A DNA stretch of 64,000 bases, taken from Patescibacteria group bacterium. GTDB lineage: Bacteria > Patescibacteriota > Patescibacteriia > JAHIZJ01. Shown here one piece after another: positions 5,052 to 24,165 of the stretch. Position numbers and translations under genes: made by a program. The stretch's first letter is position 1. Each line of letters begins with the position of its first letter. Where the stretch lies: the NCBI GenBank assembly GCA_028714495.1, contig JAQTMH010000003.1:136496-200495 (forward strand), in the 5' to 3' direction. The notes beneath the pieces were generated by a model. It did no database searches, was not told where the DNA came from, and saw only the letters and a program-made list of their open reading frames with translations.

Positions 5052-5630
5052 TCAGTCTTTTAACTTAACACTATTAACTATATCATCAAATTTTGCATCG
5101 CAATTCTGAAAATCAGCACTGTCAATATTTTCGACTTTAATGAGGGAATAAAAATAGTAAATTGAATCGCCTTTTTCAAAATAGTAACTGGCAATAAAGT
5201 CCTTAAATTCATTTCCTTTGTTTTGTATTAACTGCCGGATTGCCGATTGTCCAGCTACGAAGGAATCTTTTCGTGCAATTTCATTCTGCGTATTTGAATG
5301 CCCGACAATCCAATCACGAAGTGACAGTTTTTCTGGATTTGGTTGAACTGATAAAATTACCTCACAAGCCAGGGTTTCTACATTATTCGTTATTACTTTT
5401 TCAAAGCTCTCTAGGTCTACATAATCGCCTGTTTCACTCGGCCATATTGACCAATTAGAAGGGTACTCAAAGGTAAAATAATCGCCCTTTGTAAAAGCGG
5501 TATATCCGCTATTTGTTTGACTGTTTTTGTTAATGGGTATTGATTTGTCTGAATCATTTTTATTCTGTTGCAATGAGCAGCCGAAAGTGACAAAAGGGAC
5601 TAGAATAACCAATAGTAATATTTTTTTCAT
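5052..5630 (-). CDS. putative lipoprotein (hypothetical)
   Basis: Signal peptide with lipobox-like TFGC. Confidence 0.4.
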   Translation of the reverse strand: MKKILLLVILVPFVTFGCSLQQNKNDSDKSIPINKNSQTNSGYTAFTKGDYFTFEYPSNWSIWPSETGDYVDLESFEKVITNNVETLACEVILSVQPNPEKLSLRDWIVGHSNTQNEIARKDSFVAGQSAIRQLIQNKGNEFKDFIASYYFEKGDSIYYFYSLIKVENIDSADFQNCDAKFDDIVNSVKLKD

Positions 5631-5697: not shown

Positions 5698-5726
5698 GGG
5701 GAGAGTAAAAAACTTTACTCTCCCCC
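5698..5726 (-). terminator. hairpin downstream of hydrolase paralog A
   Basis: GGGGAGAGTAAA..TTTACTCTCCCC, a 12-bp stem directly after the stop at 5735. Confidence 0.45.
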
Positions 5727-5734
5727 GAACGTTG

Positions 5735-6481
5735 TTAGGGGCACGTTGTCCGACCCTTGGGACAAGGAACATAGGAATTGCCCGAGCAATAGCGGCCATT
5801 GTGCACGATAGTGGCTCCTCCGGAAATGCCATCCAGTCGAACGCTCACGTTGTTCCTCCAGATCGAGAAGTGGATGTGTGGAGGTGACGTGGGACCAGAG
5901 CTCCCCGCTAACCCGATTAGCGTACCCTGTAACAAATTGTCGCCAGGGGAGATAAATGCGTTCGGGTCGCAGGCCAAATGGGCTACGATCGACTTGTAAC
6001 CGTTGCGATGATCCATCACTACGCACCAACCATATCCTGTCATCTGGCCAGCGAAGAGCACTATTCCTCTAGCCGGTGCAAGCACATAACTACCGGTAGT
6101 TACCCCACCATCATCCCTGACCAGGTCGACGGAATAGTAACCGGCTCTAGGGTAATTCCAATTCTGATGCTTACCACACCCATAGGTGCAGATGGCCTTC
6201 CAGATCTCACCGTGCCAGTAGTCATTATAAATCCCGGCAAAGGGAAACTTGAAGTCGCTGATCGACTGAGGCCAGGTTGAGGGCGTACCCAATGTGATAG
6301 GATCGCCCGGGTTACCCACCTCCCCAATTCCATCATCCTGATTCACGACAACCGGATTCTCCCCCTCCCCACTACAGCCCGCGAGGACGATCAGGCCGAG
6401 CGTGAGAATCGCCAGGATTGGCGGGGCGATAGACCAGAAATACTTCATCTTCTTCACCTTCCTTTCATTGAGAAACACCAA
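5735..6481 (-). CDS. secreted lipoprotein, M23/LytM-like peptidase domain (paralog A)
   Basis: N-terminal MKYFWSIAPPILAILTLGLIVLAGCS signal peptide with lipobox. C-terminal GSSGPTSPPHIHFSIW resembles the M23 HxH zinc motif. Shares its leader and signal peptide with genes at 7244 and 18851. Confidence 0.55.
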   Translation of the reverse strand: MVFLNERKVKKMKYFWSIAPPILAILTLGLIVLAGCSGEGENPVVVNQDDGIGEVGNPGDPITLGTPSTWPQSISDFKFPFAGIYNDYWHGEIWKAICTYGCGKHQNWNYPRAGYYSVDLVRDDGGVTTGSYVLAPARGIVLFAGQMTGYGWCVVMDHRNGYKSIVAHLACDPNAFISPGDNLLQGTLIGLAGSSGPTSPPHIHFSIWRNNVSVRLDGISGGATIVHNGRYCSGNSYVPCPKGRTTCP

Positions 6482-6600
6482 AGACTCCTAGATTCTCCAG
6501 GAACAGAAAAACAGGGACTTGTGGATCACCTCCTTCCATTGTTGATGTGTCAAAGAACAAAAAACGAGCTACAATGCCCGTCTCATTGTTTTTTTGTCTT
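6482..6600 (-). promoter_or_regulatory. conserved 5' leader of hydrolase paralog family (copy A)
   Basis: Near-identical to upstream regions of genes at 8023 and 19555. mRNA sense contains TTGACA...GGAAGGAGGTGATCCAC (complementary to the 16S 3' end) about 40 nt upstream of a second, proximal SD. Confidence 0.5.
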
Positions 6601-6603
6601 TAT

Positions 6604-7161
6604 TTACAATAACCTGAAGGACGTCAGCATAGTGTTGTATGTTTTAGAAAAGTCAGCTGCCGCACTGCTGGTTTTTTGCACGTTATACGTAAACTCCATT
6701 ATTTTATTATTCGCTAATGAAGTATAAGCGCCACATTGATTAGCTGGTTGGGTCTTTGAACAAACAAGAAGCCAGTTGAAGTCACCGATTGTTTTCGTCT
6801 CTTTGGTGATTTCAGTAGGGTAAAAATCACGCAGGGTGCTCTCAAAATACTGTTCAACGGAAACACTGGGATTTTCAAGTGTTTCAATTGTCAAATCAAA
6901 GTAAGGTGAAGTATCCGGCCCGGTAAATGGGTAATTTTCTAAAGTAAACTGAAATGGTCCGCTGGTTGGCACGACATCGTCTTGAAACTTTTCACCGGTG
7001 TTAAGATAAATTGCTTCAGCAGGCAAAGTGAACCTGAAATCGTTGCTGGTATCTTTGTATACAATTTTTCCGGTTGATTTTCTGTATTCAAAAAGAATTA
7101 CAGATGTGGCTATTATTACCAAAATAATGACTAAATAGATTATCCATGTTTTTTTATTCAT
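6604..7161 (-). CDS. membrane-anchored hypothetical protein
   Basis: N-terminal TM helix. 185 aa. Confidence 0.4.
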   Translation of the reverse strand: MNKKTWIIYLVIILVIIATSVILFEYRKSTGKIVYKDTSNDFRFTLPAEAIYLNTGEKFQDDVVPTSGPFQFTLENYPFTGPDTSPYFDLTIETLENPSVSVEQYFESTLRDFYPTEITKETKTIGDFNWLLVCSKTQPANQCGAYTSLANNKIMEFTYNVQKTSSAAADFSKTYNTMLTSFRLL

Positions 7162-7208
7162 ATAATGATTTTAGCTTATTATTATAAATTTGTTAATTAG
7201 TAATAGAT

Positions 7209-7236
7209 GGGGAGAGAAGATGGCGCCTCTCTCCCC
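7209..7236 (-). terminator. hairpin downstream of hydrolase paralog B
   Basis: GGGGAGAG-aagatggcgcct-CTCTCCCC. Confidence 0.45.
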
Positions 7237-7243
7237 GATTGGC

Positions 7244-8023
7244 CTAATAGCACTGGATCTCCGGACCATTCTGATCCATCAGTGTTGGACTTGCCCAGGG
7301 ATTGTAAGCCTTGAAGCCATAGTTGGCGAGTTGCTCCCAGGTATAGAGGTGCCTGGAAATAGCGAAATTCCCGTTGCCACTTACCCAATTGGCGTCGACT
7401 ACGTCAAGCCCGTAGGAATAGACGACTACCACGATGGCGGTATGAGGCATTGCGCTTTGTAGTATCCAACCCGGCTGAGCCTGGTGGACATCTTCCAGGG
7501 CGTATCCTGTGCCAGAACGCGGCAGCACCAGATGTTTCCCGTTCCCCCAGCCATAGGATGAGCGGTAGAGAACCAGATTGGCAAAGAAACGACAGTAACC
7601 CCCACGATGACAATCTTTCCAGTTGCCATCCCAGTCCTTGAGACGAGCGATGCCACCAGCCCCACCACGGGCGGTACAGCTTCCGATCCACCACGCCACC
7701 CGCCTGTCAGCACCCCGATCCGACTCGACGTAGTTCCAGTCAGACATGGCACTGCCATGGTAGGATACCGTGGAACCACCACTGCGTGACTGATTGAGCG
7801 CATAAAATGCTTCACTCACGATTCTGTCACCCCAGTACTGAGCTAGGGGAATGCCGTGAGTATCCTCGATGTCGTCGTAAGCCGAAGAATCAGGCTGAAG
7901 TGTCTCCTGATCACTACAGCCCGCGAGGACGATCAGGCCGAGTGTGAGAACTGCCAGGATTGGCGGAGCGATTGACCAGAAATACTTCATTTCGTTTACC
8001 CCTCTTTCTCTGAAAAACGCCAA
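7244..8023 (-). CDS. secreted lipoprotein, CHAP/NlpC-P60-like amidase domain (paralog B)
   Basis: Same signal peptide MKYFWSIAPPILAVLTLGLIVLAGCS as paralog A. Mature part has Cys (KDCHRGGYCRFF) and His (PHTAIVVVVY) spaced as in CHAP-type amidases. Confidence 0.5.
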   Translation of the reverse strand: MAFFRERGVNEMKYFWSIAPPILAVLTLGLIVLAGCSDQETLQPDSSAYDDIEDTHGIPLAQYWGDRIVSEAFYALNQSRSGGSTVSYHGSAMSDWNYVESDRGADRRVAWWIGSCTARGGAGGIARLKDWDGNWKDCHRGGYCRFFANLVLYRSSYGWGNGKHLVLPRSGTGYALEDVHQAQPGWILQSAMPHTAIVVVVYSYGLDVVDANWVSGNGNFAISRHLYTWEQLANYGFKAYNPWASPTLMDQNGPEIQCY

Positions 8024-8140
8024 AGACTCTTAGATTCGCCAGGAACAGAAAAACATAGATTTGTGGATCACCTCCTTCCTATTTGGGTTGTAATGAACAA
8101 AAAAAGAGTCCAGGAAAGCCCGTCTCTTTCTATGTTTAGA

Positions 8141-8178
8141 ATAACCCCTTGAAAATAGGCGTCAAGGGAGGGTTATCC
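8141..8178. promoter_or_regulatory. conserved imperfect palindrome upstream of paralog B (also upstream of paralog C)
   Basis: ATAACCCCTTGA-aaataggcg-TCAAGGGAGGGTTAT. In mRNA sense it embeds TTGACG-N16-TATTCT. Same element at 19878-19916. Confidence 0.4.
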
Positions 8179-8232
8179 ACAATGTTCCTTTTGACATATT
8201 GTATACTATAGCTAAATAAATAACTGAAAATT

Positions 8233-8739
8233 ATGCCCCGATTCCAAAAAGTAACTCAAACAACACTCATTGCGGGTTTCGGTGTTATCATGCTGCTTGT
8301 CCTCGGCTACATTGTATATCAAGACCAATTTGCCCGATTCGATGTACAGCATCTTAAAGCTGATCCAAATTTTACATATACTGACACATTATCGTGTCGT
8401 GTCGAATATTCTACATTTAAGAAGATAGGCGAAGCGTTGATGGACATTTACGCCGAAAGGGATTTTACACTGTCAAACCTGAATACTGATCAGCCAAAGT
8501 TGCGAATAAGTAACTTTGAGCTTGCGTTGAAAAAAATACGTGAGAGTAATAATGCCATAACACTTCAAACAGAGCCCCTCGCACCTGACGATACTTCAAT
8601 ACAAACGATACAAGTACTCAAAGACAGGGGTACATTCGTAAGGGCATATATGGGTACTAGCCAGTACTTTGGCGCTCGTGAAAAATATTTCCCTGATTTA
8701 TTCCAAAATATTATCGCCCAAAAAGGCCGATGCAAATAA
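8233..8739 (+). CDS. membrane-anchored hypothetical protein
   Basis: N-terminal TM helix. 168 aa. The only plus-strand ORF in this part of the window. Confidence 0.4.
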   Translation: MPRFQKVTQTTLIAGFGVIMLLVLGYIVYQDQFARFDVQHLKADPNFTYTDTLSCRVEYSTFKKIGEALMDIYAERDFTLSNLNTDQPKLRISNFELALKKIRESNNAITLQTEPLAPDDTSIQTIQVLKDRGTFVRAYMGTSQYFGAREKYFPDLFQNIIAQKGRCK

Positions 8740-9003: not shown

Positions 9004-11799
9004 CTACTTCATAGGCAGTGTGAATATAAAAGTGCTACCTTTCCCCAATCCTTCACTTTCCACCCATATTTGCCCGCCATGGGCATCCACGATGCGCTTG
9101 GCAATGTATAAACCTAATCCAGAGCCGTCGGGCTGGACCTGGGCAATCCCCTCGCCCCGGACAAATTTTGTAAAAAGGCGCTTGGCTTCTTCTTTCGGGA
9201 TGCCGCGGCCAGTGTCTTTTACTGACACAGTAACCTCGTTGTCAGTCTTTTCAATCGCCACGGTGATTTTCCCTTTCTCCGTGTATTTGATCGCGTTATC
9301 AACGAGGTTCAAGACCACATCCTTAAGCTTGTCCGCGTCAATTGTGATCAGAGGCAATTTTTTGGCCGGTTTCCGATATTCCACTTTAAGTTTTTTCTCC
9401 TCGGCCAGTTTGATTACTTCGTTGATTTCAGCCGCTATCAAATCTTCGAGCTGGGCCGGCTTCAGATCGAGAATAAATTTACCCGCTTCGATCTTCGTGA
9501 TATTGAGAAAGAGATTGACCATTCTCACCATCCGCCTCGAGGCGTCGAGCACTTGCTTCAAAATATTCAATTTCTCCTCATCCACCTTGCCGAAATCGCC
9601 GTCCACGATCATCGAAAGCCAGCCCATGATGCCGGTCAGAGGCGTCCGCAGCTGGTGCGAGGCGATCGAGATAAAATCGTTCTTCGCTTCGTCAAGCTGT
9701 TTCAAGTGCTCATTGGCTTTGCCTAGCTCGACATTAGCCTGACGCAGTTCCTCGACCAATTTCAAATTCCGGCTGACTATGCCCATTTGGTCAGCCAGAG
9801 CCTCCATCATCTGGATCTCATCCTCAGACACTGCTTTCTTGGCTTTTTGCAGGACGAAGACGATGCAGCCGATTATCTCCTTCTCGGAGAAAATCGGCGT
9901 GGCCACTATGGTCTTGGCTCCGACCAGCTTTTGCATGGCGAAGCAAACCGGCTTCGGGATTGGCGGGCTTAGAAAATCGGAGAGATTTTCGCTGATCTGG
10001 ATATTGCCCGAACGCATGGCTTCAGTGGCCAGATCCTTGTCCTTCATTGTCCCGCTGAATTCCTCCAGTTTCTTCGGCAAAAGTTTTATCGCGGCCTGGG
10101 TTATCCTAGTCGAGGTGATCGCGGCTGGATGGGTTGTATTGCCATCGCCTTTTAAAATAATCACTCCGCCGATATAGCCCAGCTCGCCTGAAATGCCGTC
10201 AGCTATCGCCTGCGTGACTTTCTTGAAATCCAGGGACCGGGTGATGATATTGCCGATATTCTGAAGGGCGGAAAGATAGATATTGCGGTTTTTCAGCTCG
10301 ACATTGGCGAGTTGGAGATTGGCTGTGGCTTTTTCCACCTCCACTTTCATTTTCTCGCTGAACAATTTAACCTCATCATAGAGCCGCGACTTCTCGATTG
10401 CCGATCCCATCAAGGGGCTCAAAACTTCCAGCAGTTTTAAATCGTTCCCACTGTACACGTCACCGGAGCGTTTCTGGCCAAGCACATAGAGACCAGTAAC
10501 TTCGCCCTCAAGCATGATCGGAGCAATGACAGACGCGCCTGTGGCTTTTACTTCAACCAGGGATTTCTCCAGCTGTTTACGCTCGCGCTCATTGGCCGTG
10601 TCAGAGACCTTCCGCTCTAATTCCTCGAGCACTACCACTTTCTTGGTTTTCTGGATGAACTTGGCGACCGAGCCGTTCGCGTCGACGCGCGCATTAATAT
10701 TGTTAGTATTTCTATCGCGCCGTTTGCTATATGATTGTTTGTTCTTAGTCAGCAGAAGGATATCCGCGCTCTTTATTTTCAGTATCTCGGCAAGCTTCCA
10801 CTCTACGGATGTAAGCAAATCATCGATTTCTATCTTCACGCTAACCATCTCGGTCATTTTCTGGGTGGCTTCAGTGTAATCCACCTCACCTTTGAAGAAT
10901 ACGGCATCGGTAATCTTACCAAGGAGCCGCTTTAATGGATCAAAGCCAAAAACGATTATGAGCGATACAAGGATGGTCGCTAAATATCCTGATCCGCCGA
11001 GCTGTTGAATGAATAGACCTGTAAGGAAAGTAGCAGAGGTGAATGCTAGGGTAGTGAAAAGGATAAGAATAAAATAGATGATGGAACGGGAGATAACGAG
11101 ACGTATGTCAAGGAGGCGATGACGTATAATCGCATAAGCTGTAAAACCTAAAAATATTATAATTGATTGAATTCCATAAATGCTAAATTCCTGCTTTCCA
11201 AAAATGGGTAATATAATATTTGTAATCACCGCGATCCCAGCAGAAATAGTTAATCCAAAAAATAAATATTTTACTTGTTGTTTAACTATACCGCTACTTT
11301 TTCGATAGGTTCGAATTATATTGTTTAGCGCAATTATTATAAAAGTAGCAAAATAAAATATCCACGGAAGATAAGATGGACCATATACAAATTCTGTACC
11401 CCACGGATGGATGCGTACCCCCTTTACCAATAAATTGACCGGAAGAGTGCTTAGCAATATCAGTATTGGTAAGCCAATAAATAGTTTTTTCTTTTTTGAA
11501 AGATCAACTTTATTTGGAAAGATATAACTAAAATATAATAATAGCGCTGGTATAAATATCGGCCCAATAAATACTAATTTACTTATTTGAGCTGCAATAT
11601 TTTCATCACTCGTATGATCGACAAGATATGTAAATAATATCCAAATATCAATTACGATCACTAAATACCCAAATGATATACGAACCTTACTACCCTTTGA
11701 TTTAATTATTATAAACACACCAATTAAGCCACATAAAAACAACACAAAAAAGGTAATTATTGTGGAAATATTGAGAGGAATATTAAACATTTTGTTCAA
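9004..11799 (-). CDS. sensor histidine kinase with N-terminal 7TM receptor domain and GAF domains
   Basis: N-terminal ~230 aa has seven hydrophobic helices and is homologous to the 7TM-only proteins at 13326, 14009 and 15381 (FIGPIFIPALLLYFSYIFP). H-box ISIASHQLRTPLTGI; HATPase motifs DNAIKYT, DTGRGIP, GSGLGLYIAKRIVDAHGG. Confidence 0.85.
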   Translation of the reverse strand: MNKMFNIPLNISTIITFFVLFLCGLIGVFIIIKSKGSKVRISFGYLVIVIDIWILFTYLVDHTSDENIAAQISKLVFIGPIFIPALLLYFSYIFPNKVDLSKKKKLFIGLPILILLSTLPVNLLVKGVRIHPWGTEFVYGPSYLPWIFYFATFIIIALNNIIRTYRKSSGIVKQQVKYLFFGLTISAGIAVITNIILPIFGKQEFSIYGIQSIIIFLGFTAYAIIRHRLLDIRLVISRSIIYFILILFTTLAFTSATFLTGLFIQQLGGSGYLATILVSLIIVFGFDPLKRLLGKITDAVFFKGEVDYTEATQKMTEMVSVKIEIDDLLTSVEWKLAEILKIKSADILLLTKNKQSYSKRRDRNTNNINARVDANGSVAKFIQKTKKVVVLEELERKVSDTANERERKQLEKSLVEVKATGASVIAPIMLEGEVTGLYVLGQKRSGDVYSGNDLKLLEVLSPLMGSAIEKSRLYDEVKLFSEKMKVEVEKATANLQLANVELKNRNIYLSALQNIGNIITRSLDFKKVTQAIADGISGELGYIGGVIILKGDGNTTHPAAITSTRITQAAIKLLPKKLEEFSGTMKDKDLATEAMRSGNIQISENLSDFLSPPIPKPVCFAMQKLVGAKTIVATPIFSEKEIIGCIVFVLQKAKKAVSEDEIQMMEALADQMGIVSRNLKLVEELRQANVELGKANEHLKQLDEAKNDFISIASHQLRTPLTGIMGWLSMIVDGDFGKVDEEKLNILKQVLDASRRMVRMVNLFLNITKIEAGKFILDLKPAQLEDLIAAEINEVIKLAEEKKLKVEYRKPAKKLPLITIDADKLKDVVLNLVDNAIKYTEKGKITVAIEKTDNEVTVSVKDTGRGIPKEEAKRLFTKFVRGEGIAQVQPDGSGLGLYIAKRIVDAHGGQIWVESEGLGKGSTFIFTLPMK

Positions 11800-12556
11800 T
11801 AATATTCATTACATCAATATGTAAATATTTTGGAGAAATAATATTTTTTTTATTTTGAATTATTCTGATCATTAAGGTAACGATAACGGCCGCATTCATG
11901 TATGATGCGATACCTAATTGTGGTGAAAAGCCACGTTTATCAAGCGCCATAAATATTTGTTTCAATTTAGGCACAAGGTATCTTGGTGGTTTAAAGTGTA
12001 GAGAATTTAATAAGTGTCTATAAAGATCCTCATTTGAACCCAGTTTTTTTGATCCAACAAGTATATCTTTCATAGTGGAAGAGTTTTTATTAAAAAGAAT
12101 GATAACGTTTCCAAAACCTACATTAAATGGAACAATTACTGATTTACCTTTTTTGATTGCTCTATCTGTCAATTCAACAAATACCCTCCCATAGTCAAGT
12201 GTGTTTATTATTATATCAGAACATGCAATGAGTGTGTCTATGTCTTTTGTGTTTATCCTTTTTGCGATTACTTTTATTTTGCTTTTTTCATTAATATATT
12301 TTATTTTTTTGCTTAAGGATATCGCTTTATTCTTTCCAAGGTCACTTTTAATAAATGTCTGTCTATTTAGATTACTAACCGCCACTTTATCACCATCTAC
12401 CAAGATGAAATTATTGAATCCAGTCCTGGCCGCAAGTATTGATATGTTACTTCCAACTCCACATCCTGCAAAAGCAAGCCTCACTTTTTTTATTTTATCT
12501 TGTATATTAAACGGAATATAAACCATGTTTCTGCTTACAATATCTCTATATTTCAT
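11783..12556 (-). CDS. ThiF/MoeB/E1-like adenylyltransferase (no Zn CxxC, no peptide-clamp domain)
   Basis: Rossmann FAGCGVGSN plus DGDKVAVSNLNRQ. 257 aa. Overlaps the HK start by 17 nt. Confidence 0.75.
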   Translation of the reverse strand: MKYRDIVSRNMVYIPFNIQDKIKKVRLAFAGCGVGSNISILAARTGFNNFILVDGDKVAVSNLNRQTFIKSDLGKNKAISLSKKIKYINEKSKIKVIAKRINTKDIDTLIACSDIIINTLDYGRVFVELTDRAIKKGKSVIVPFNVGFGNVIILFNKNSSTMKDILVGSKKLGSNEDLYRHLLNSLHFKPPRYLVPKLKQIFMALDKRGFSPQLGIASYMNAAVIVTLMIRIIQNKKNIISPKYLHIDVMNIIEQNV

Positions 12557-12578
12557 TTTATGTATGAATGATAATAAT

Positions 12579-13268
12579 TTAATGTATTGAATAATTTCGC
12601 TCTAATCCATTATATATCAATATTCCATTTACTATATATTTGTATAAAGCTGGATTGTGTATTTTTAAATTTTCTTCCATCTCTGCAATATCCATTATGT
12701 AAGGCGAAGTTAAGCCTTGATATACTGATTGCGGACCGATTTTTTTAAAAGGGAAACCAATTTTTTTTAATACAGGGAATAATTTATCATCTAAAACACT
12801 ATATACTTGTGTAATATCATTATGTTTTGAATATGCATATAGACCTTTAATCTGTGCTAAAAGTAGAAACTTTCGACGATATTTATTTGCTACTATTAAG
12901 CGCGAGATCTCCGCAAGACGGTCTCTATTACTTACCGGCACCTGTAATCCAATATTAAAATGTTTTTCTATTGGTAATCCTATTTCTGAATTCAGAATGA
13001 ATCTTACTGTGGCAGCTATTTCATTATCACTTTTATGGCGCAAAATAAAATGGATTGACTTGCTATCATATTCGTCTTTTTCTAACTCATTCGGATAATC
13101 TTCTTTATTTAAATAATTATATTCTAAGCAATATACTTGGTATCTTATTTTGTAAATTTCTTTGAGTTCTTCTGGCGAATCTGTAGTATAGAAATTGAAG
13201 TTTCTGTGAAACATTTTCTGAAAATACCAAAACTCAATTGACCTTTGCAATTTACTTAAAAAATACAT
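12579..13268 (-). CDS. LuxI/FeeM-like GNAT N-acyltransferase (N-acyl amino acid synthase-like)
   Basis: LKEIYKIRYQVYCLEYNYL ... EKDEYDSKSIHFIL...ATVRFIL follows the pattern of Acetyltransf_5/FeeM/autoinducer-synthase-like proteins (RxxVF..E, E.DxFD, hydrophobic-R-hydrophobic). Confidence 0.5.
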   Translation of the reverse strand: MYFLSKLQRSIEFWYFQKMFHRNFNFYTTDSPEELKEIYKIRYQVYCLEYNYLNKEDYPNELEKDEYDSKSIHFILRHKSDNEIAATVRFILNSEIGLPIEKHFNIGLQVPVSNRDRLAEISRLIVANKYRRKFLLLAQIKGLYAYSKHNDITQVYSVLDDKLFPVLKKIGFPFKKIGPQSVYQGLTSPYIMDIAEMEENLKIHNPALYKYIVNGILIYNGLERNYSIH

Positions 13269-13325
13269 ATCCGTTTATTTAATATAGTCGTGTTATTTGT
13301 ATATCTATGATAAAGTATTATGCAG

Positions 13326-14003
13326 TCATTTCTTCAACGCAACTCCCGCAATCATAACTGCCACAACACCAGCGAATATTGGAGAGTACGCCATATTAAA
13401 CGATAAATTAATAAGAGGCAAGATTCGATCAATAACCAGCCCTATTATACCACTTATTCCAATTATTATTGTTACAAAGGCAACTTGCTTTTTCTGCTGT
13501 GGAGTAACGATTTTTATCTTTTTTAATAATAAATACAACGACAAGAAAAAATATATCGATGAGACTGTAAATAACGCCCAGAACGCATTGCCCGGTTCTA
13601 TTCCAACAAATCCGCCATGTACAACAACGGCATCAATAAAACTAGGATGGGATATAATAATTGGCAAGACAATAAAAATTGATCCAAATATTAACAAACG
13701 GCGCACAAGTTGGGACATAAGAGTCGGCAATGGATAATAGATAGCCAGCTCTAGCAGACTAACGAAGCTTGCTGTTCCTGAAAAAAACGCGGCTCTGGCA
13801 AAAATCATCTTTGATGCTTCGGTAATCGGAGTCATGAGCAGTCCGACAAAGAAAGACATTAACGAAAAACCGAGCAACATGCCGCACAGCGCGTATATCG
13901 ACTGCGATTTCTGATATCGAAAATAAATGTAAAACATGACCATCAACTCAATGATAGACAGTAGCCATAGAATTATTGTGTTTGTTTCCGTAATATTATT
14001 CAT
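13326..14003 (-). CDS. stand-alone 7TM receptor-domain protein (HK 7TM paralog)
   Basis: 225 aa, seven predicted helices. Similarity to the HK N-terminus. Confidence 0.5.
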   Translation of the reverse strand: MNNITETNTIILWLLSIIELMVMFYIYFRYQKSQSIYALCGMLLGFSLMSFFVGLLMTPITEASKMIFARAAFFSGTASFVSLLELAIYYPLPTLMSQLVRRLLIFGSIFIVLPIIISHPSFIDAVVVHGGFVGIEPGNAFWALFTVSSIYFFLSLYLLLKKIKIVTPQQKKQVAFVTIIIGISGIIGLVIDRILPLINLSFNMAYSPIFAGVVAVMIAGVALKK

Positions 14004-14008
14004 CGGTT

Positions 14009-14689
14009 TTATACCACCTTCTTCTTAAACGCCACATAGGCCGTAAACCCAAGCCATACAACCGACAATTCCGCTCCGGTAAACTCCATCCACGCCGGCC
14101 GTCCAGAGCCGGCCATCGGAATAATCATGTCCGTAATCATGTTGGCAACGAATGGAATCAATATGCTAATTATTACATATTTCAATTGCCATCTGTGCAT
14201 GCCATTTGACCGTCGGTATTTTTTGATTAACGAGAAAAGCGTCCATAAGAAGAATAAAGCGAAAAAAGCCACATAAAGAGGAAATAATTTACCATATTCC
14301 AAGATTGTTAAATCACTAGTTCTCTGTACTCCGATAATTATACTATCAGTCAAAAAAAATAGCGGAGCGAATGCCACTGCCGGCACTAGCACTATCACCT
14401 TTCGCCACAATCCGGTCTGAAAAAGGCGGTACGGAAAAACCCACGAGAAATAAAGGACACTTGAAGCAATTAGTACGCCAGCGAAATACGCCATCCGATA
14501 CCAGAGAGCGGATTCAGTGTCTGTATTAATTGCAATAAAACTATTGGCTAAAATCCAGATTGTTACTCCAGTGGCTGTAAAAAGAAAAGAAATATTGACG
14601 GCATTTTTTGGGTCGCGGTTATAGATATAAAAACCGAGCGCCAGGACTATCAATGCGATAACCAGCAATATTATTCCGTGAATAATCAT
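14009..14689 (-). CDS. stand-alone 7TM receptor-domain protein (HK 7TM paralog)
   Basis: 226 aa. FYIYNRDPKNAVNISFLF...VLYFSWVFPYRLF aligns with the HK N-terminal region. Confidence 0.5.
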   Translation of the reverse strand: MIIHGIILLVIALIVLALGFYIYNRDPKNAVNISFLFTATGVTIWILANSFIAINTDTESALWYRMAYFAGVLIASSVLYFSWVFPYRLFQTGLWRKVIVLVPAVAFAPLFFLTDSIIIGVQRTSDLTILEYGKLFPLYVAFFALFFLWTLFSLIKKYRRSNGMHRWQLKYVIISILIPFVANMITDMIIPMAGSGRPAWMEFTGAELSVVWLGFTAYVAFKKKVV

Positions 14690-14843
14690 CTCACCTCTTT
14701 CTTAAAATAGTATTAGACTTAAATACCTAAAAATTATATTCTAAAACATTGTTCCTCTCAAATTGCGTATATAATTAACACCTGTATTATACAAAATTTC
14801 CACGAAAAGTCAAATGCTTGAAAATATCATAAATAACCCAACA

Positions 14844-15341
14844 TCATGAGAAAAAACGCCGGATGAGGGTAGTATTTATATAGAGGTATGGGTATACTTC
14901 ACCCTCCTTTGCCAGCTTGTGTTTAATCGGGTTGTATTTCAAATATTCTATATACCTAACAAAATCATCCTCATCTCGAATAATGCGGTCATGGAAAGAA
15001 GATTGCCAATAGAATCTCCTACCGGGGGGCAAAGGATGATCATCCTTTGCCCCAGACAACAAGATATTTGCGCTCCTTGATGTGTTGCGCTTAATATTAT
15101 GCATGATTTCAGAAATAGTATATTTGCCTTGCGGTTTAATCATGATGTGGAGATGGTCGGGTATGAATACATAACCAAACAATAAAAACCTCATCCATTC
15201 CTGAGCCAGGTGGATTTTGCACATGCCTAACCGCGCCAGGCCGACATTTTGAAAATAAGGATACTTATCCTTTGTTTTTGTTGTCACAAAATAGACTGCG
15301 TCTTCCAAATAAATCCTTTTTGCAAGATGTTTGTGTAACAT
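14844..15341 (-). CDS. REP-associated tyrosine transposase (IS200/IS605 TnpA-like, HuH)
   Basis: HuH motif IPDHLHIMI. C-terminal RFYWQSSFHDRIIRDEDDFVRYIEYLKYNPIKH is typical of the RAYT/Transposase_17 family. 165 aa. Inserted between 7TM paralogs. Confidence 0.72.
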   Translation of the reverse strand: MLHKHLAKRIYLEDAVYFVTTKTKDKYPYFQNVGLARLGMCKIHLAQEWMRFLLFGYVFIPDHLHIMIKPQGKYTISEIMHNIKRNTSRSANILLSGAKDDHPLPPGRRFYWQSSFHDRIIRDEDDFVRYIEYLKYNPIKHKLAKEGEVYPYLYINTTLIRRFFS

Positions 15342-15380
15342 AAAACAGGGTTTCCATCTCCCTGCTGTCTTTTGTCGCGC

Positions 15381-16841
15381 TTATACTTTCACGCCGATTC
15401 GTTCCAATGCTTCCTTGTACAATATGGCATTTTCCAGAGCATAGGTTGCTTCGCGGGCCAGGTTTTGGAGAAAATCAACATCTTCCTTTGTAAATGGCTC
15501 TTTTGACACTTTCCCGCCAAGCAGGACAATCGCGGACAAGCCCTGGTTCGAGGCTAGTGGTAGAGCTGCTTCAAATTTAACTCTGGCCAATTCATTCTCG
15601 CATGTTTCCAGCCGGCGCTGATCAGCCCCAAAAGCTTCTTGTATTAAATATGGAATTTCTTCACGGATTAGCATTTTCGGATGCTCTTTTAAAAAACTTG
15701 GCAGGGCGCCTTCAGACTGGAAGGAAATTTGGCCATCCAGTGAATCATAGCTCCCCTGTCTTTTGTTCACAATCAGGCAATTAATACCTTCAACCTTTAC
15801 CAGTTTCAAAGTTTCCTCAGAAAGTTCAGCGCAGAATTTTCCAAGGTCAACCGAACCAGCCACGCGCTGTCGTACGTTTTCGATCAGCTGTTTCATGTTC
15901 GGCTCTGTCCGAAAGAAGAGATGGTTGATATTCCGTATAAGCCATTTACGCAATGGGATGAACGTTGTAGCAATGACAAATACTGACGCAAAATTTACAA
16001 ACGCCCTGCTAAAATCGTATTTCTGGACAAGATAATCATTCGCGAGCAGGACAAGATAGCCGTAGATAACTAGCAAGACGACTAACACTAATGTGTGTAC
16101 CAATCCTTTACGCAATACGAAGCGGATGCCCATAAAACGGTGACGTAGCATAGCGTAGGCAACGGTAATTGAGAAAAAAGTAAAACCGACTACTCCAAGT
16201 GAATATAATTTATTGTCTCCCAGAGATGGCAAGATTAAATTAAAAGTTAAAGTGAATGCAGCCCCAACTGTAGTGGCAATTGCTATGTATTTTATTTGAA
16301 TACGTCCGATCCTTGAGTGATTAGTTTTGTAAGTAATATATAAACGCCGCAAACCTAAAGAAATAAATACTACTATATAAAATATATAGCCAAAATAAAG
16401 TTCTCCCGCTTCACTCCGGTATCCATAATTCTCAATATAATGAATATCTTTTAGATTATATTCGGTTGGAACAAACGCTGCAATTATCAGAGAGGGCAAG
16501 AACAATAATACAATTTTCCACCATTTATATTGTATATCCTTTCTTAAGAAGGTGTATGAAAATAATAGAAATAGTGTAGGTATAAATGCGGGCCCGATAA
16601 AAGTTGATCTTGCCCAGGCAAGGGCTGCAGTGTAACCAGCAACAAGATCTGACATAAAGTTAGTCACAGCCCAAATAAAAAGTGAAAGCGAGAGAAGACC
16701 AAAATATATATATGGGGCACGTCTTTTACCTTTAGAAAATAACAAAAAAGTTATCACACCCATCACTACAGCGCAAATCAAAGTCAACCCCTGAGAGGTT
16801 TGAATCTGCCAACTATGATACATTCCTGGATTGATTTCCAT
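15381..16841 (-). CDS. 7TM receptor domain fused to C-terminal GAF domain (no kinase output)
   Basis: N-terminal 7TM homologous to the HK (FIGPAFIPTLFLLFSYTF; AYAMLRHRFMGIRFV). The C-terminal 170 aa are GAF-like. Confidence 0.6.
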   Translation of the reverse strand: MEINPGMYHSWQIQTSQGLTLICAVVMGVITFLLFSKGKRRAPYIYFGLLSLSLFIWAVTNFMSDLVAGYTAALAWARSTFIGPAFIPTLFLLFSYTFLRKDIQYKWWKIVLLFLPSLIIAAFVPTEYNLKDIHYIENYGYRSEAGELYFGYIFYIVVFISLGLRRLYITYKTNHSRIGRIQIKYIAIATTVGAAFTLTFNLILPSLGDNKLYSLGVVGFTFFSITVAYAMLRHRFMGIRFVLRKGLVHTLVLVVLLVIYGYLVLLANDYLVQKYDFSRAFVNFASVFVIATTFIPLRKWLIRNINHLFFRTEPNMKQLIENVRQRVAGSVDLGKFCAELSEETLKLVKVEGINCLIVNKRQGSYDSLDGQISFQSEGALPSFLKEHPKMLIREEIPYLIQEAFGADQRRLETCENELARVKFEAALPLASNQGLSAIVLLGGKVSKEPFTKEDVDFLQNLAREATYALENAILYKEALERIGVKV

Positions 16842-18165: not shown

Positions 18166-18759
18166 TTAGTAATCAGTAAATTGAAAAGTTCCTAAAATAT
18201 CATCATATATTGCAGTGTACGAGTTATATTGTTCTGGTTCAGCTATATAACCAACAATTGTGATTAATGTGTTGTCATTGGGGATAAAAGTGGCTATTTG
18301 GTATCCTAGCGCGTTCTCGGTTATTTGCGACGCTTTATGGCCACTGACAGATATTTCTTTTTGATTAATTATATACGGCCTCGATTCTGTTATCTTTCCC
18401 TGAATATATCTATCCGCTTCTTCGTAATTTTTTACTGTATAACTTAATACCTCAATTTTCATCCCGCTGGTTAGCTCATTGTCTTTAGCGCTCAAATCTT
18501 TGGCCCGACTGTCTAGAAATGAAAGAGTTTTCGGATCTGGGTATGGGGCAAGTGACCAATCCCGTGGAACTTTTATTTTATAGCCTTCCTGTTTATTCGT
18601 ATAAACATTATTATCGCCACTTATTCCAATACAAATAATTGAATCATCTACTCTATTTACACAAGGTTCAGCTGGATGATGATATTTTATTCCAATAACA
18701 ATAATCAGAATAAATATTAATACTGCCAATGTAGTGTATAACGTCTTGTTAGTTTTCAT
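18166..18759 (-). CDS. membrane-anchored hypothetical protein
   Basis: N-terminal TM. 197 aa. Confidence 0.4.
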   Translation of the reverse strand: MKTNKTLYTTLAVLIFILIIVIGIKYHHPAEPCVNRVDDSIICIGISGDNNVYTNKQEGYKIKVPRDWSLAPYPDPKTLSFLDSRAKDLSAKDNELTSGMKIEVLSYTVKNYEEADRYIQGKITESRPYIINQKEISVSGHKASQITENALGYQIATFIPNDNTLITIVGYIAEPEQYNSYTAIYDDILGTFQFTDY

Positions 18760-18802: not shown

Positions 18803-18829
18803 GAATAAATAGGGGGAGTAATTATCAAC
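18803..18829 (-). terminator. hairpin downstream of hydrolase paralog C
   Basis: GGGGGAGTA-attatcaac-TACTCCCCC. Confidence 0.45.
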
Positions 18830-18850
18830 TACTCCCCCATTAGACGACTT

Positions 18851-19555
18851 CTACTGCCAGCAGTAAAAGTACGTACCGCAAGTGTACCAATCTGAATCGC
18901 AGAGTATCGGAATGACCGGGTCGCCACCACTGAAATGATCAATATTCTCGTAGGCAGCAAGGTGGAGATGGGGGCCAGTCGAGTATCCGGTATTCCCGAC
19001 CTTTCCAATACGCGTCCTGAAGGTTACGCTCTGGTTGTAGGAAACGGCAACCTCTGATAAGTGTGAGAACCGAAGGGCAACGCGCCGATTGTGGTCATAT
19101 ACCACCACGGTGCCACCATAGCCATGGTTCCATTCACCCGGTGAGATCGCCTGAACTACCCTGCCGTTAATTCCGGCATAAACGTTCTTTCCAGAACAAC
19201 CAGCTTTGGTGAGATCCCGCGCCATGTAATCTGCGCCAGAGTGTGTCCAGCTCCGTGTACCACCGCAAAAGCTACCTGGAGCACCTTTCGTTCTGGGTTC
19301 CTGCCAACCAGTCCAGTGGTTCGGATTCTCCTGGCCAAGCGGCCAGGCCACTGAAAGCCATGCGCCGGCAGCCTGAGGTTGGGGAGAGAAAACGCTATCT
19401 ACCTGTACCTCGGGTTCGAAAGTCGTTTCTAATCCTTCCTCCCCACTACAGCCCGCGAGGACGATCAGGCCGAGTGTGAGAAGCGCCAGGATCGGCGGTC
19501 CAACAGACCAGAAATGCCTCATTTCCTTTGCCTCTCTTTCTTTAAGAAACACCAA
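18851..19555 (-). CDS. secreted lipoprotein, M23 family metallopeptidase (paralog C)
   Basis: Signal peptide MRHFWSVGPPILALLTLGLIVLAGCS. GKVGNTGYSTGPHLHLAAYEN is the canonical M23 motif. Confidence 0.75.
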   Translation of the reverse strand: MVFLKEREAKEMRHFWSVGPPILALLTLGLIVLAGCSGEEGLETTFEPEVQVDSVFSPQPQAAGAWLSVAWPLGQENPNHWTGWQEPRTKGAPGSFCGGTRSWTHSGADYMARDLTKAGCSGKNVYAGINGRVVQAISPGEWNHGYGGTVVVYDHNRRVALRFSHLSEVAVSYNQSVTFRTRIGKVGNTGYSTGPHLHLAAYENIDHFSGGDPVIPILCDSDWYTCGTYFYCWQ

Positions 19556-19652
19556 AGACTCCTAGATCCACCAGGAACAGAAAAACAGAAACTGTTAGAC
19601 CACCTCCTTTCATTCGGTGAAATACGCATTTGGGATCTAAGGATCACCCATG

Positions 19653-19676
19653 CCCCGAACCAAACGTGGTTCGGGG
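19653..19676. repeat. REP-like hairpin CCCCGAACC-aaacgt-GGTTCGGGG
   Basis: 9-bp stem with a 6-nt loop. Family member. Confidence 0.5.
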
Positions 19677-19724
19677 TCCTTTCATCGCTGATGTGTCAAA
19701 GAACAAAAAACGACGGAAAACTTG

Positions 19725-19748
19725 CCCAGCACCCTATGTGGTGCTGGG
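19725..19748. repeat. REP-like hairpin CCCAGCACC-ctatgt-GGTGCTGGG
   Basis: 9-bp stem with a 6-nt loop. Confidence 0.5.
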
Positions 19749-19826
19749 TTACCCAATACTCTGTGAAGTACTAGGAACGTCCCGTCGTCGTTGATTTACT
19801 GATATAAATAAAACGAGCTGTGTTTA

Positions 19827-19850
19827 CCCTGCACCCATCGTGGTGCGGGG
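19827..19850. repeat. REP-like hairpin CCCTGCACC-catcgt-GGTGCGGGG
   Basis: 8-9-bp stem with a 6-nt loop. Confidence 0.5.
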
Positions 19851-20014
19851 GAAAGCCCGTCTCTTTCTATCTACAGAATAACTCCTTGAAAATAGGTGTC
19901 AAGGGAGGGTTATCCACTGACAAAAAATTGGCGGTTAAGCGCAGGCCCCAAAATGTTGTTTTAATTTTAATAAATAAAAAAGGGGCGCGAACTTGTGTCC
20001 GTGCCCGCTTGTGG

Positions 20015-23000: not shown

Positions 23001-23176
23001 TAATCTGTCATATTTCCGCACCCCAGACATCCATGTGTACACCCGTGATAGTACCCATTGTAACACACGTTTTCGTTGTCGAATGTCGTCAATACGTCAC
23101 CGCACTCAAGAGCCGAGGATTGCGCTTGGCAAAAAATGCCAAGGCACAACATAGCGAACAGAATCCTGAATGACAT
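20015..23176 (-). CDS. giant secreted cell-wall hydrolase: N-terminal CHAP domain, three CBM4/9-like modules (two identical), C-terminal beta-sandwich sorting-type domain
   Basis: Signal peptide. CHAP Cys (YHCVELVNRV) and His (GGGHGHVALVDWV). 151-aa module CSGDDSGSFIGNGQFDGQSCWTVEH...WLKDV repeated exactly. C-terminal ...VTVSFTLEKESPVRVDVFDITGRKVKSLLDEPLAQGPHAIIWNGRNSDGSVVPSGIYFVKIRA resembles Por_Secre_tail/FlgD-Ig-like domains. Confidence 0.62.
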   Translation of the reverse strand: MSFRILFAMLCLGIFCQAQSSALECGDVLTTFDNENVCYNGYYHGCTHGCLGCGNMTDYGSQYHCVELVNRVHKHSDWSGDGDEYYGSARTKGLVAYENSGTQELPKHGDILCYSGGGHGHVALVDWVNKIDDSGLYEVGNVEQNWSVTGRFTHTLQRGQDGKLTMSSRGSYAVQGWLRNPAYRPGDYASLFNDEYNSNGGDRKYGRLQWDIHFYHPEGERPVYGDNHVPTNCLCKNFGGGEFGNCGILLDVYGGATHAYTVRNDFWENSRSDYNQKGWAQRGGPTSPEGMPINDERYVPPERRGYYQNTYGIANVSSVQEYVRGERLWDGYNPYLRPYPPGSCAPGWFADGWRNDNNISYRFVDCFNRNGGSQWLGHAIQYDWHPAHVHQWNGYDVQFFDHAAFGLVMVMYDPNNGDGNACATNEAYCVRTGFLDYYLSHGGPAEFGCPTRDEYVIDGLGAIDFYHRGRDVTYRFIWRNNRVDEIQELPPCGEEGEGGGYGGPEECSSDDPNSFIGNGQFDGQSCWTVEHPNLPYVVTNFNGLFEGHINGPHEWYEVKLSQDWVYLTANSDLEVVFTGVTNDPGTVVVSLEDSRGNHVLWEEVPLTSTERRLTLPFRSNVTDPNGRLTFYLGWVDRSVWLKDVVVRYAETPPPQPVCSGDDSGSFIGNGQFDGQSCWTVEHPNLPYVVTNFNGLFEGHINGPHEWYEVKLSQDWVYLTANSDLEVVFTGVTNDPGTVVVSLEDSRGNHVLWEEVPLTSTERRLTLPFRSNVTDPNGRLTFYLGWVDRSVWLKDVSVRWKQTLPVPIACERDEGSFLGNGDFSTPGACWLARYPQLRWADFRMENNNGWLLVNGGTNWYDYELKQGGFTLTRSEAYKLNIVLSADTPCRVTVAVGNRRTGKFHLWKDFNLGRLIDHQIGELFTVTTPNEADTLYIFAGKSPNSVWAKNAWLGRQSLAASIVGTGLMLSPNPANSSAPVTVSFTLEKESPVRVDVFDITGRKVKSLLDEPLAQGPHAIIWNGRNSDGSVVPSGIYFVKIRADNYPAEKRLIIVH

Positions 23177-23933: not shown

Positions 23934-24165
23934 TGGTTATTCTCCCTGCTTAATAAATAAACGACGGCAACTCCCTTGGGTCCCGTCTTACCCTTTTTGG
24001 CTAAGGTTATTGGATTGTCTGGATTTTTTCGATGCATATAAAATGATATCTCGTTTTATCAGGGCTGTCAAATAATTATAGAGTTTAAACTAACCGCTGG
24101 CAATCGTACAAATGACAGTCCATCAATATTTTTTATGCCGATTTTTGTGCTGTGGATAATCTATA

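Follow-up and report, generated by a model that had tools for sequence, protein, structure and literature searches.

A shared leader and lipoprotein signal module on unrelated predicted peptidoglycan hydrolases of an uncultured Patescibacteria bacterium

In Borrelia burgdorferi, genes of the Erp/UHB/Elp type (UHB, upstream homology box) have 5' DNA and a leader peptide in common although their mature proteins are unrelated, with recombination, and the title of a report by Sung et al. from 2000 names recombination in the UHB-flanked genes. In the vsp genes of Mycoplasma bovis and the vlp genes of Mycoplasma hyorhinis, a conserved 5' non-coding region and a prolipoprotein signal of about 25 amino acids precede divergent mature regions, and intragenic recombination occurs. 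In the lpl cluster of Staphylococcus aureus, homologous recombination at a conserved nucleotide block reshuffles the variable parts on either side of it from strain to strain (PMC2568036). Here, an arrangement of this kind is described in a 64-kb stretch of DNA (the window, to which all coordinates refer as whole-stretch positions) from the metagenome-assembled genome (MAG) of an uncultured Patescibacteria bacterium. Three minus-strand genes of the window, A, B and C, have in common a module of about 177-190 nt, i.e., an untranslated leader of about 110 nt and a 26-codon lipoprotein signal peptide, and are probably self-contained expression units for lipid-anchored peptidoglycan hydrolases, with a portable front end that is exchanged by recombination. 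As in the Borrelia genes, conserved upstream DNA and a leader peptide were found on unrelated proteins, together with recombination of the module among paralogs; Erp/UHB-type in this sense denotes a functional kind, not a homology family, and none of the Erp/UHB, vsp/vlp and lpl systems is homologous to the module.

Parallels were also noted for single elements of the transcript. In the STAB-SD (mRNA-stabilizing Shine-Dalgarno) element of cry3A, a site that resembles a Shine-Dalgarno (SD) sequence lies deep in the 5' untranslated region (UTR) without starting translation, and the 30S subunit bound there blocks the 5'-exonuclease activity of RNase J1 (PMC4113751). The leaders described below resemble that of Bacillus thuringiensis cry3A in that an SD-like block complementary to the 16S tail lies in the 5' UTR, and the cry genes have a strong 3' stem-loop, as do the hydrolase genes here. 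Standby sites offer a second likeness, i.e., an accessible 30S site upstream of a true ribosome-binding site (RBS) that is predicted to lie in a hairpin (H3 in the RNAalifold model). With the lambdoid Q/tR' and the BglG/SacY systems, the latter with its ribonucleic antiterminator (RAT) and terminator, the likeness is a terminator right after the promoter and an alternative hairpin that overlaps its 5' arm; the analogy is one of architecture only, with no sequence similarity and no Q-like or CAT/PRD antiterminator gene seen.

The shared module, its cargos and its exchange

Three-way alignment and a repeat finder agreed on the module. Thus, repeat family D1 comprised copies at 6364-6540, 7906-8082 and 19438-19614 (177 nt, 85% identity to the reference), a 31-mer (CTCGGCCTGATCGTCCTCGCGGGCTGTAGTG, 0 expected by chance) was exact in three of three copies, and the only matches of a 37-nt leader pattern within the window were at these three sites (0 expected). 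A first-pass annotation of this DNA had reported a near-identical leader and signal cassette on A, B and a third copy, with a string identical between copies, and both observations stood. Among the window copies, identity was 95-97% in the 3' half of the signal-peptide DNA, 77-92% in its 5' half and 73-94%, segment by segment, in the leader, and after TGT-AGT (Cys-Ser) it fell abruptly to 41-46% in the mature parts, which is the level of unrelated sequence. The abrupt drop that had been anticipated was therefore found while the anticipated leader identity above 90% was not, and similarity did not extend equally through the mature domains, the outcome that had been named as speaking against a cassette. 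The block stops at the lipobox cysteine because homology stops there.

The likely starts are the ATG codons at 6451 (A), 7990 (B) and 19525 (C), not the TTG codons of the longest open reading frames (ORFs; 5735-6481, 7244-8023 and 18851-19555, respectively). Signal peptides accordingly placed by the alignment occupy 6374-6451 in A (MKYFWSIAPPILAILTLGLIVLAGCS, LAGC read from the translation), 7913-7990 in B and 19448-19525 in C (MRHFWSVGPPILALLTLGLIVLAGCS), all on the minus strand. A canonical lipobox, LAGC, closes the N-terminus that they have in common, MKYFWSIAPPILAILTLGLIVLAGC-S, and every copy follows the form MK/MR…ILAILTLGLIVLAGC-S, i.e., a charged n-region, a hydrophobic h-region and a lipobox. 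The lipobox consensus is [LVI][ASTVI][GAS]C, which VLAGC-S fits, and the predicted export signal is, by this lipobox, specifically of the lipoprotein type. The leaders, on the same strand, extend over 6452-6554 in A (true SD, AGGTGA, at 6457-6462; helix H2 at 6484-6504; a U-rich tract; a complement of the anti-SD sequence at 6522-6535), 7991-8096 in B (anti-SD complement at 8064-8077) and 19526-19704 in C, where an SD-like block (AAGGAGGTGGTCT) at 19597-19609 and a 72-nt insertion at 19615-19686 were noted. This insertion is bounded by a direct repeat (ATGAAAGGA) and contains an incomplete further copy of the SD-like block (GGGTGATCC) as well as a strong hairpin (CCCCGAACC…GGUUCGGGG).

Two further genomes carry the module, in agreement with the conservation in relatives that the first-pass annotation had called for. 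The B protein is identical to a protein of the Patescibacteria MAG GCA_028717285.1, a contig of which was 91-99% identical to the window and thus comes from a sister strain, and the flanks of the module loci are syntenic between the two strains. The third genome, GCA_016294925.1, carries a C ortholog (C') and a gene designated P0059 (D). Exact-pattern scans for the leader in genome and metagenome contig collections, with two patterns each, gave 0 matches, the first pattern being too strict in that the sister strain deviates within it. Scans of viral contigs gave one chance match inside a coding region for the upstream hairpin T1 (described below) and none for the signal-peptide DNA, and a 40-column signal-peptide profile search without a match was uninformative since it missed known members too. 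As far as these searches see, the module sequence appears confined to a small clade of three genomes.

Behind the signal peptides, the cargos differ. Mature A (5735-6373, minus strand) is an M23 (LytM-type) metallopeptidase domain, 100% identical to its sister ortholog, and mature C (18851-19447, minus strand) is a second, distantly related M23 domain. Matches to Pfam PF01551 (E = 1.9e-19 and 70.1 bits for A, E = 6.6e-17 and 61.9 bits for C, gathering cut-off 28.7 bits) were joined by M23 matches in the PDB that reached E = 4.7e-10, and the two mature proteins were 28% identical in amino acids over 130 residues. The HxH motif of M23 appears as PHIHF in A and PHLHL in C, and the histidine of AHL/SHL was also seen. 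At the position of the M23 HxxxD motif, judged by eye from an alignment without a reference M23 over the motif, the sequences were YYSVD (A) and YMARD (C), with no obvious HxxxD; a histidine 10-13 residues upstream of this stretch is conserved in homologs.

Mature B (7244-7912, minus strand) had no match in Pfam, NCBIfam or PHROGs, and a profile search of the PDB returned spurious armadillo-repeat matches only. Residues Cys134, His184, Asp200 and Asn202 were invariant in 28 homologs, and the AlphaFold (AF2) model (pLDDT 86.6) had as its best match in BFVD a CHAP protein (E = 3e-4, probability 1.0), followed by many endolysins; the best matches in the PDB were CHAP and NlpC/P60 lysins, at weak E values (0.047-0.2) and low TM scores. 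From the conserved residues and the modeled fold, it seems reasonable, though not proven, to call B a CHAP-like (CHAP/NlpC-P60-like) cysteine peptidase. The earlier view that the mature domains of A and B are unrelated was thus upheld, and the finding that A and C differ from B in family and fold is supported, i.e., the front end sits on unrelated or very distant bodies. The mature part of P0059 (343 aa), the fourth cargo, is unrelated to the others and was unidentifiable by searches (pLDDT 32 for a single-sequence structure model), and the cargo types behind the module number four across the three genomes.

At the other end of each gene, 8-15 nt past the stop codon, lies a hairpin of the form GGGGAG…CUCCCC (-19 to -21 kcal/mol, z -3.9 to -5.3) that would serve as a terminator or 3' stabilizer. 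These hairpins, on the minus strand at 5698-5725 for A (GGGGAGAGUAAAG…CUUUACUCUCCCC; -20.8 kcal/mol, z -5.3), 7209-7236 for B (-20.8 kcal/mol, z -4.3) and 18812-18838 for C (by fold prediction), are the only ones of the type in the 64 kb, as expected from the earlier report of a hairpin at the end of each copy.

Downstream of each hydrolase gene there is also an AT-rich gene (5052-5630, 6604-7161 and 18166-18759, minus strand; GC content 0.34-0.37) for a membrane-anchored protein or lipoprotein of about 190 aa. The three partner genes show no mutual similarity by BLAST, that of C is kept beside C in the third genome (69% amino acid identity), and their products may be immunity or partner proteins. 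A foreign composition of the hydrolase genes, as after horizontal gene transfer, was considered and rejected (GC content 0.55 versus 0.49-0.55 for core genes); the compositional outliers are the AT-rich neighbors, not the hydrolase genes.

Comparison of module copies between strains, designated win for the window strain and mag for the sister-strain MAG with the gene as suffix, gave relationships at odds with those of the cargos. Mature orthologs of the two strains were 100% (A), 99.7% (B) and 98.9% (C) identical whereas the orthologous modules were 83.8% (A) and 79.0% (C) identical. The closer matches lay across genes, i.e., 91.6% identity between the modules of winA and magC and, with the 72-nt insertion included, 91.6% between those of winC and magA; the insertion, which is in the C leader in the window, is in the A leader in the sister strain (L001, about 11455-11526). 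Furthermore, the nearest relative switches along the module from segment to segment. Thus, the 5' half of the magC signal peptide is of the A/B type while that of winC resembles the C copy of the third genome. Such switching of nearest neighbors by segment points to gene-conversion tracts. In the third genome, the block from the promoter through the signal peptide is 100% identical on the C ortholog and P0059. A Logan contig, built separately, has the upstream flank of A joined to the insertion, as in the MAG.

A like pattern recurs in another lineage (L012), where tandem B-family paralogs, P0019 and P0013, are each followed by a gene for about 400 aa. A block of about 395 nt that comprises upstream boxes, a T1-like hairpin, an SD and the first 80 or so codons is 100% identical between L012 positions 5850-6245 and 8100-8495, after which the genes are about 65-70% identical.

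Mosaic modules on cargo that is 99-100% identical are the mark of recombination or gene conversion, not of simple duplication. As read from these alignments, recombination or gene conversion is shown to copy the module, whole or in tracts, between paralogs and simple duplication is contradicted, which bears out the cassette-like exchange proposed in the first-pass annotation.

The promoter region and the leader

A conserved promoter box was noted upstream of B at 8138-8178 (minus strand), where it reads GGATAACCCTCCC-TTGACG (-35), 16 nt, TATTCT (-10), forms an imperfect inverted repeat and belongs to repeat family D3, and upstream of C at 19875-19915 (minus strand; TTGACA, 16 nt, TATTCT). The box is intact at both of these sites and degenerate upstream of A. 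A B homolog from another species (L004) has the same hexamers and spacing with a different spacer, and an A homolog (L009) has a similar box with TTGACT as -35 and TAAAAT as -10. Its recurrence in these two sequences supports the view that the box, placed by a consensus match, is a real promoter. A promoter at the TTGACA within the leader was considered and rejected, there being no -10 element after it and no conservation in B. In hydrolase promoters of other lineages, the G(T)GGATAA box is directly preceded by repeats of GCCGTCGC or CGACGGCGC (L004 1-30, L009 14-50, L010 1194-1300, L011 1198-1310 and L012 about 5845-5870). These repeats, which are absent upstream of B and C in the window, may be a transcription-factor site.

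Between the promoter box and the leader are terminator-like hairpins, each a GC-containing stem followed by a U-run (-10.9 to -42.2 kcal/mol, z down to -6.2; all on the minus strand). The first, T1, lies at 8097-8131 upstream of B (AGAAAGAGACGGGCUUUCCUGGACUCUUUUUUU, by fold prediction) and, as a copy with an inner hairpin, at 19806-19868 upstream of C (-25.9 kcal/mol, z -4.4). Upstream of C it is followed by a second terminator-like structure, T2, at 19705-19795 (AACGACGACGGG…CCGUCGUUUUUU with a three-way junction; -42.2 kcal/mol, z -6.2), which was also found in the copies of the third genome. The hairpin before A, at 6555-6592 (GAGACGGGC-AUUGUA-GCUCGUUUU and a U-run; -14.0 kcal/mol, z -4.4), is a hybrid of T1 and T2, and in its region an alternative small hairpin, ACAAUG/CAUUGU, would loop out AGACGGG. 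In seven copies from three genomes, the 5' arm of T1 (AGAAAGAGACGGGCUUUC) is invariant; the 3' arms vary, stay complementary and are followed by a U-run. The upstream neighbor of winB (8233-8739, plus strand) is divergent, as is that in L012, and T1 is therefore not simply the terminator of an upstream gene.

Promoter and T1 were not limited to the hydrolases. In the third genome they also stand before a gene for an M10 peptidase and, in the sister strain, before one for a Cys-rich precursor peptide with a radical-SAM/SPASM maturase, and T1-like hairpins were seen in the 5' UTRs of homologs from other lineages. The sister-strain locus (L003 2880-5614, GCA_028717285.1) resembles clusters for ribosomally synthesized and post-translationally modified peptides (RiPPs), with a Cys-rich precursor (…GSCNCGGDCNTECGGCNGGS), a radical-SAM/SPASM enzyme and a methyltransferase; it has no counterpart in the window strain and apparently sits behind a promoter box and T1 like those of the hydrolases. 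A related arrangement at 23956-24075 (minus strand) and at L003 1900-2030, i.e., a promoter-like TTGACA-17-TATCAT, a GGGU-AAGACGGG-ACCC hairpin and a terminator-like structure, lies downstream of a gene that resembles alanyl-tRNA synthetase (L003 1-1080), and synteny between window and sister strain breaks directly after GACGGGAC, with different genes beyond.

These hairpins could form a conditional attenuator, in which the hairpin with the AGACGGG loop, which overlaps the 5' arm of T1 or T2, would be bound by a trans-acting factor, i.e., an RNA-binding antiterminator of the RAT/BglG type or a promoter-loaded factor of the Q type. With the terminator thus blocked, a set of secreted products under common control (hydrolases, M10 protease and the RiPP operon) would be turned on. 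This account is compatible with the portable expression unit and is a possibility, though on the unlikely side. The hairpins and their U-runs begin within about 5 nt of the predicted transcription start, C has three terminators in a row if that of the upstream gene is counted, and the divergent neighbors of winB and L012, the M10 and RiPP genes behind the same elements and the T1-like hairpins of other lineages all agree with it. In addition, the AGACGGG loop is closed by five different stems, and closure by at least 4 bp was found at five of five leader GACGGG sites versus one of 13 others (background probability 0.105); since the copies are homologous, however, the five stems are not independent. 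Set against this, the small hairpin is weak relative to the terminators, no antiterminator gene was found nearby, and a hairpin so near the 5' end could just stabilize the mRNA. Moreover, ordinary termination suffices for three of the five window copies (before A, upstream of C and at 23956-23990), which lie behind a co-directional gene. Altogether, the evidence for a terminator/antiterminator pair of T1 or T2 and the AGACGGG-loop hairpin is suggestive. A riboswitch was rejected, a ligand pocket being unlikely in a hairpin whose inner part varies among the copies or is missing, as in T1, and a likeness to guanidine-II (ACGR loop) or c-di-AMP (ydaO) riboswitches was dismissed by eye (closing pairs, misfit to the consensus) and undetected by Rfam.

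Within the leader, the first-pass annotation had noted a perfect complement of the anti-SD sequence about 40 nt upstream of the true SD. Such a complement, scored against the canonical 16S tail, is exact in A (6522-6535) and B (8064-8077) as AAGGAGGTGATCC(A), and the 14 nt of AAGGAGGTGATCCA in these two leaders form the longest complement to that tail in the 64 kb. It is imperfect in C, where AAGGAGGTGGTCT has two mismatches and 9 nt of complementarity, and the distance of 40 nt needs correction to about 56-60 nt between the block and the weak true SD, the ATG being 71 nt downstream of the block. In the third genome the block is degenerate (GAAAGGGGGTGAAT), and the TTGACACATCAAC part of the string quoted earlier occurs in A and C, not in B. 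More generally, G(A/G)AAGGAGG is found in the leaders about 71-75 nt ahead of the ATG, A-family homologs of other lineages have an SD-like AGAAAG(G/C)GRGGTG about 70-115 nt before theirs, and an upstream anti-SD complement is absent from the B-family homolog L004. For comparison, 19 of 46 ORFs of the window (listed starts, 22 nt before the start) lacked even a 4-nt anti-SD match, and complementarity of at least 6 nt was found in four of the 46, with a maximum of 8 nt. Most window genes are thus without a recognizable SD, and in several a TATAAT-like box is located 5-12 nt ahead of the start codon, which suggests that many mRNAs of the window may be leaderless or have short leaders.

In the RNAalifold model, the true SD is paired into a hairpin (H3) and the upstream block is weakly paired with the U-tract. 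The core GAAAGGAGG is reportedly (Agaisse and Lereclus, 1996) the STAB-SD sequence of cry3A. A role of the block as a STAB-SD-type mRNA stabilizer appears no less plausible than one as a standby site; the large ORFs of the window did not include RNase J. Searches with Rfam gave only a tRNA at the gathering threshold, and E-value scans of the leader gave chance matches well below gathering scores.

Alternatively, the block could be the RBS of a small upstream ORF (uORF), or the relic of an older start, and act through translation or coupling of the uORF. Support for this comes from two distant A-family sequences (L010 and L011), where an ATG 3-5 nt after the block opens short ORFs, from L009, which has a TTG at 6 nt, and from winB, where an ATG 14 nt downstream of GGAGG opens 8 codons. 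In the B family, moreover, the purine-rich equivalent is the real SD right before the ATG (GAAAGGGGG in L004 and AAAGGAGA in L012). Yet six of eight module copies lack an ATG, GTG or TTG at usable spacing after the block, the uORFs that do exist vary in length and peptide, and the ATG of winB is lost in magB. The account as a whole is improbable, and a conserved uORF was rejected after comparison of the module copies.

Weight of the proposed expression unit

In the self-contained units that are considered probable here, a sigma-70-like promoter with the GGATAAC…TTGAC box, intact in B and C, would be followed by one or two terminator-like hairpins, each with its U-run, and then by the leader of about 110 nt, the 26-codon lipoprotein signal peptide (LAGC-S), the cargo domain and the GGGGAG…CUCCCC hairpin. 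All cargos would be exported and lipid-anchored by one route, Sec and then Lgt and Lsp, and would share post-transcriptional control; B and C would also have the same promoter/operator. The anti-SD complement would bind the 3' end of 16S rRNA in the 30S subunit without starting translation, and the bound subunit could be a STAB-SD-type barrier to decay from the 5' end, a standby site for the weak SD, or both, with the promoter-proximal hairpins acting as attenuators or 5' stabilizers.

Several points weigh against this proposal or parts of it. The promoter, the start, termination and binding of the 30S subunit are all features that we infer from sequence. With A lacking an intact promoter, co-regulation of all three genes is not established, and with the anti-SD complement imperfect in C and the third genome and absent from L004, a strict requirement for it is doubtful. 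The predicted leader helices H1-H3 fit all copies with covariation no better than in shuffles, so that the covariation check proposed in the first-pass annotation was not significant. M23 catalytic activity of A and C is unproven, given that there is no obvious HxxxD. Finally, a single assembly underlies the pairing of module and cargo in the window strain, short-k assemblers could in principle be misled by the identical stretches of 31-45 nt, and the arrangement of the sister strain was seen in two assemblies that are possibly from one sample.

The last of these points raises the possibility that chimeric metagenome assembly across a repeat produced the repeated block or the mosaics. Identical stretches of that length can tangle small-k de Bruijn graphs and a Logan contig (L002) breaks within the module, but the module was present in three assemblies of three genomes and in a Logan contig, its flanks are syntenic, the shared run ahead of the insertion has a length of only about 25 nt, two independent chimeric joins are required to swap the module alone, and reads would tell apart paralogous copies that differ by 15-25%. 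An artifact is therefore very improbable. Phase or antigen variation of the mycoplasma type, with switching by site-specific inversion or slippage of homopolymer tracts in the 5' region, was judged highly improbable. The leaders do have T- and A-runs, and a conserved 5' UTR and lipoprotein signal on variable bodies is a hallmark of vsp, vlp and vsa loci. However, every copy has a complete front end in the same orientation, homopolymer lengths are equal between the strains, there is no adjacent recombinase gene, the ends of the sole transposase gene, IS200-like Y1, have no related hairpins, and the cargos, being enzymes, are unlike repeat-rich antigens. A REP/RAYT or integron-like cassette was rejected for the same lack of related end hairpins at the sole Y1 transposase and for want of an integrase. 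Simple recent duplication with a front end that merely diverges more slowly, which would suit two M23 peptidases (A and C) and the purifying selection that can act on signal peptides and regulatory regions, is hardly credible given cargos unrelated to M23 (B and P0059), 28% protein identity of A and C beside 80-92% nucleotide identity of the modules, and orthologous modules that are more diverged than the orthologous cargo and are mosaics of paralogous ones.

Other features of the window were noted beside the hydrolase loci. A gene at 20015-23176 (minus strand) encodes a secreted protein of 1053 aa with CHAP and Big/CBM-like domains and a C-terminal sorting domain (Por_Secre_tail) of the type IX secretion system; this tail is unexpected in a Patescibacterium because the group has no outer membrane. 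The gene contains a 300-nt direct repeat (20793-21092 and 21246-21545, 100% identical), and the sister strain has the RiPP-like locus in its place. A signaling-rich variable stretch at 9004-16841 (minus strand), unlike the sister strain in gene content, contains a 931-aa 7TM/GAF histidine kinase, ThiF, an acyltransferase that resembles FeeM/autoinducer synthases, three HisKA_7TM paralogs and the IS200-like Y1 transposase.

The Patescibacteria, or candidate phyla radiation (CPR), are mostly uncultured episymbionts, and the earlier guess at an epibiotic or predatory lifestyle fits a genome from this group. For the question of how CPR bacteria attack or remodel the walls of the host and their own, the locus names a small set of predicted lipid-anchored hydrolases whose front end recombines between genes within populations. 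A regulon of secreted products could be defined by the promoter box, the STAB-SD-like block and the promoter-proximal hairpins, and both metatranscriptomics and the heterologous expression of CPR lysins can start from the motifs, the predicted transcript ends and the candidate enzymes. A wider form of the proposal, that clade-wide control in Patescibacteria gates a secreted 'attack' regulon by conditional antitermination at a conserved promoter region, is speculative and unlikely. So is the joint claim that this region consists of GCCGTCGC repeats, the G(T)GGATAA-TTGAC box and a terminator with the alternative AGACGGG-loop hairpin. If true, M23 and CHAP-like lysins would be joined in the regulon by an M10 protease and a RiPP, and the conserved DNA of the region would also serve as portable homology, such that new effector domains could plug in behind an existing promoter, leader and lipoprotein signal.

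Comparison with known systems

A swappable pattern of leader and signal was not found described for Patescibacteria, and the nearest systems differ from the module in several respects. Between UHB and the module there is no sequence homology. The cargos of Erp/UHB are host-binding surface antigens whereas those here are peptidoglycan hydrolases, and the Erp genes are on cp32 prophage plasmids whereas the module is on a chromosomal island. Unlike Erp/UHB, the present system also has terminator-like hairpins close to the promoter, a long complement of the anti-SD sequence and a 3' hairpin that is conserved. The vsp and vlp genes are clustered, phase-variable (by inversion or a promoter tract) and encode repeat-rich antigens, in contrast with the present genes, for which neither a switch element nor a recombinase was found. 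The lpl paralogs of S. aureus are homologous over their whole length and carry the conserved block in the middle of the ORF, whereas here it is formed by the 5' UTR and signal peptide and is followed by unrelated cargos. Compared with STAB-SD, the complementarity here is longer (14 nt) in A and B and degenerate in other copies, and compared with classical standby sites, which are unstructured flanks, it is, in A and B, a perfect SD complement. In evolutionary terms the module adds one more case to a pattern already known and sets up no new principle, while the leader would be unusual in its predicted combination of tandem promoter-proximal terminator-like hairpins with a 14-nt anti-SD complement.

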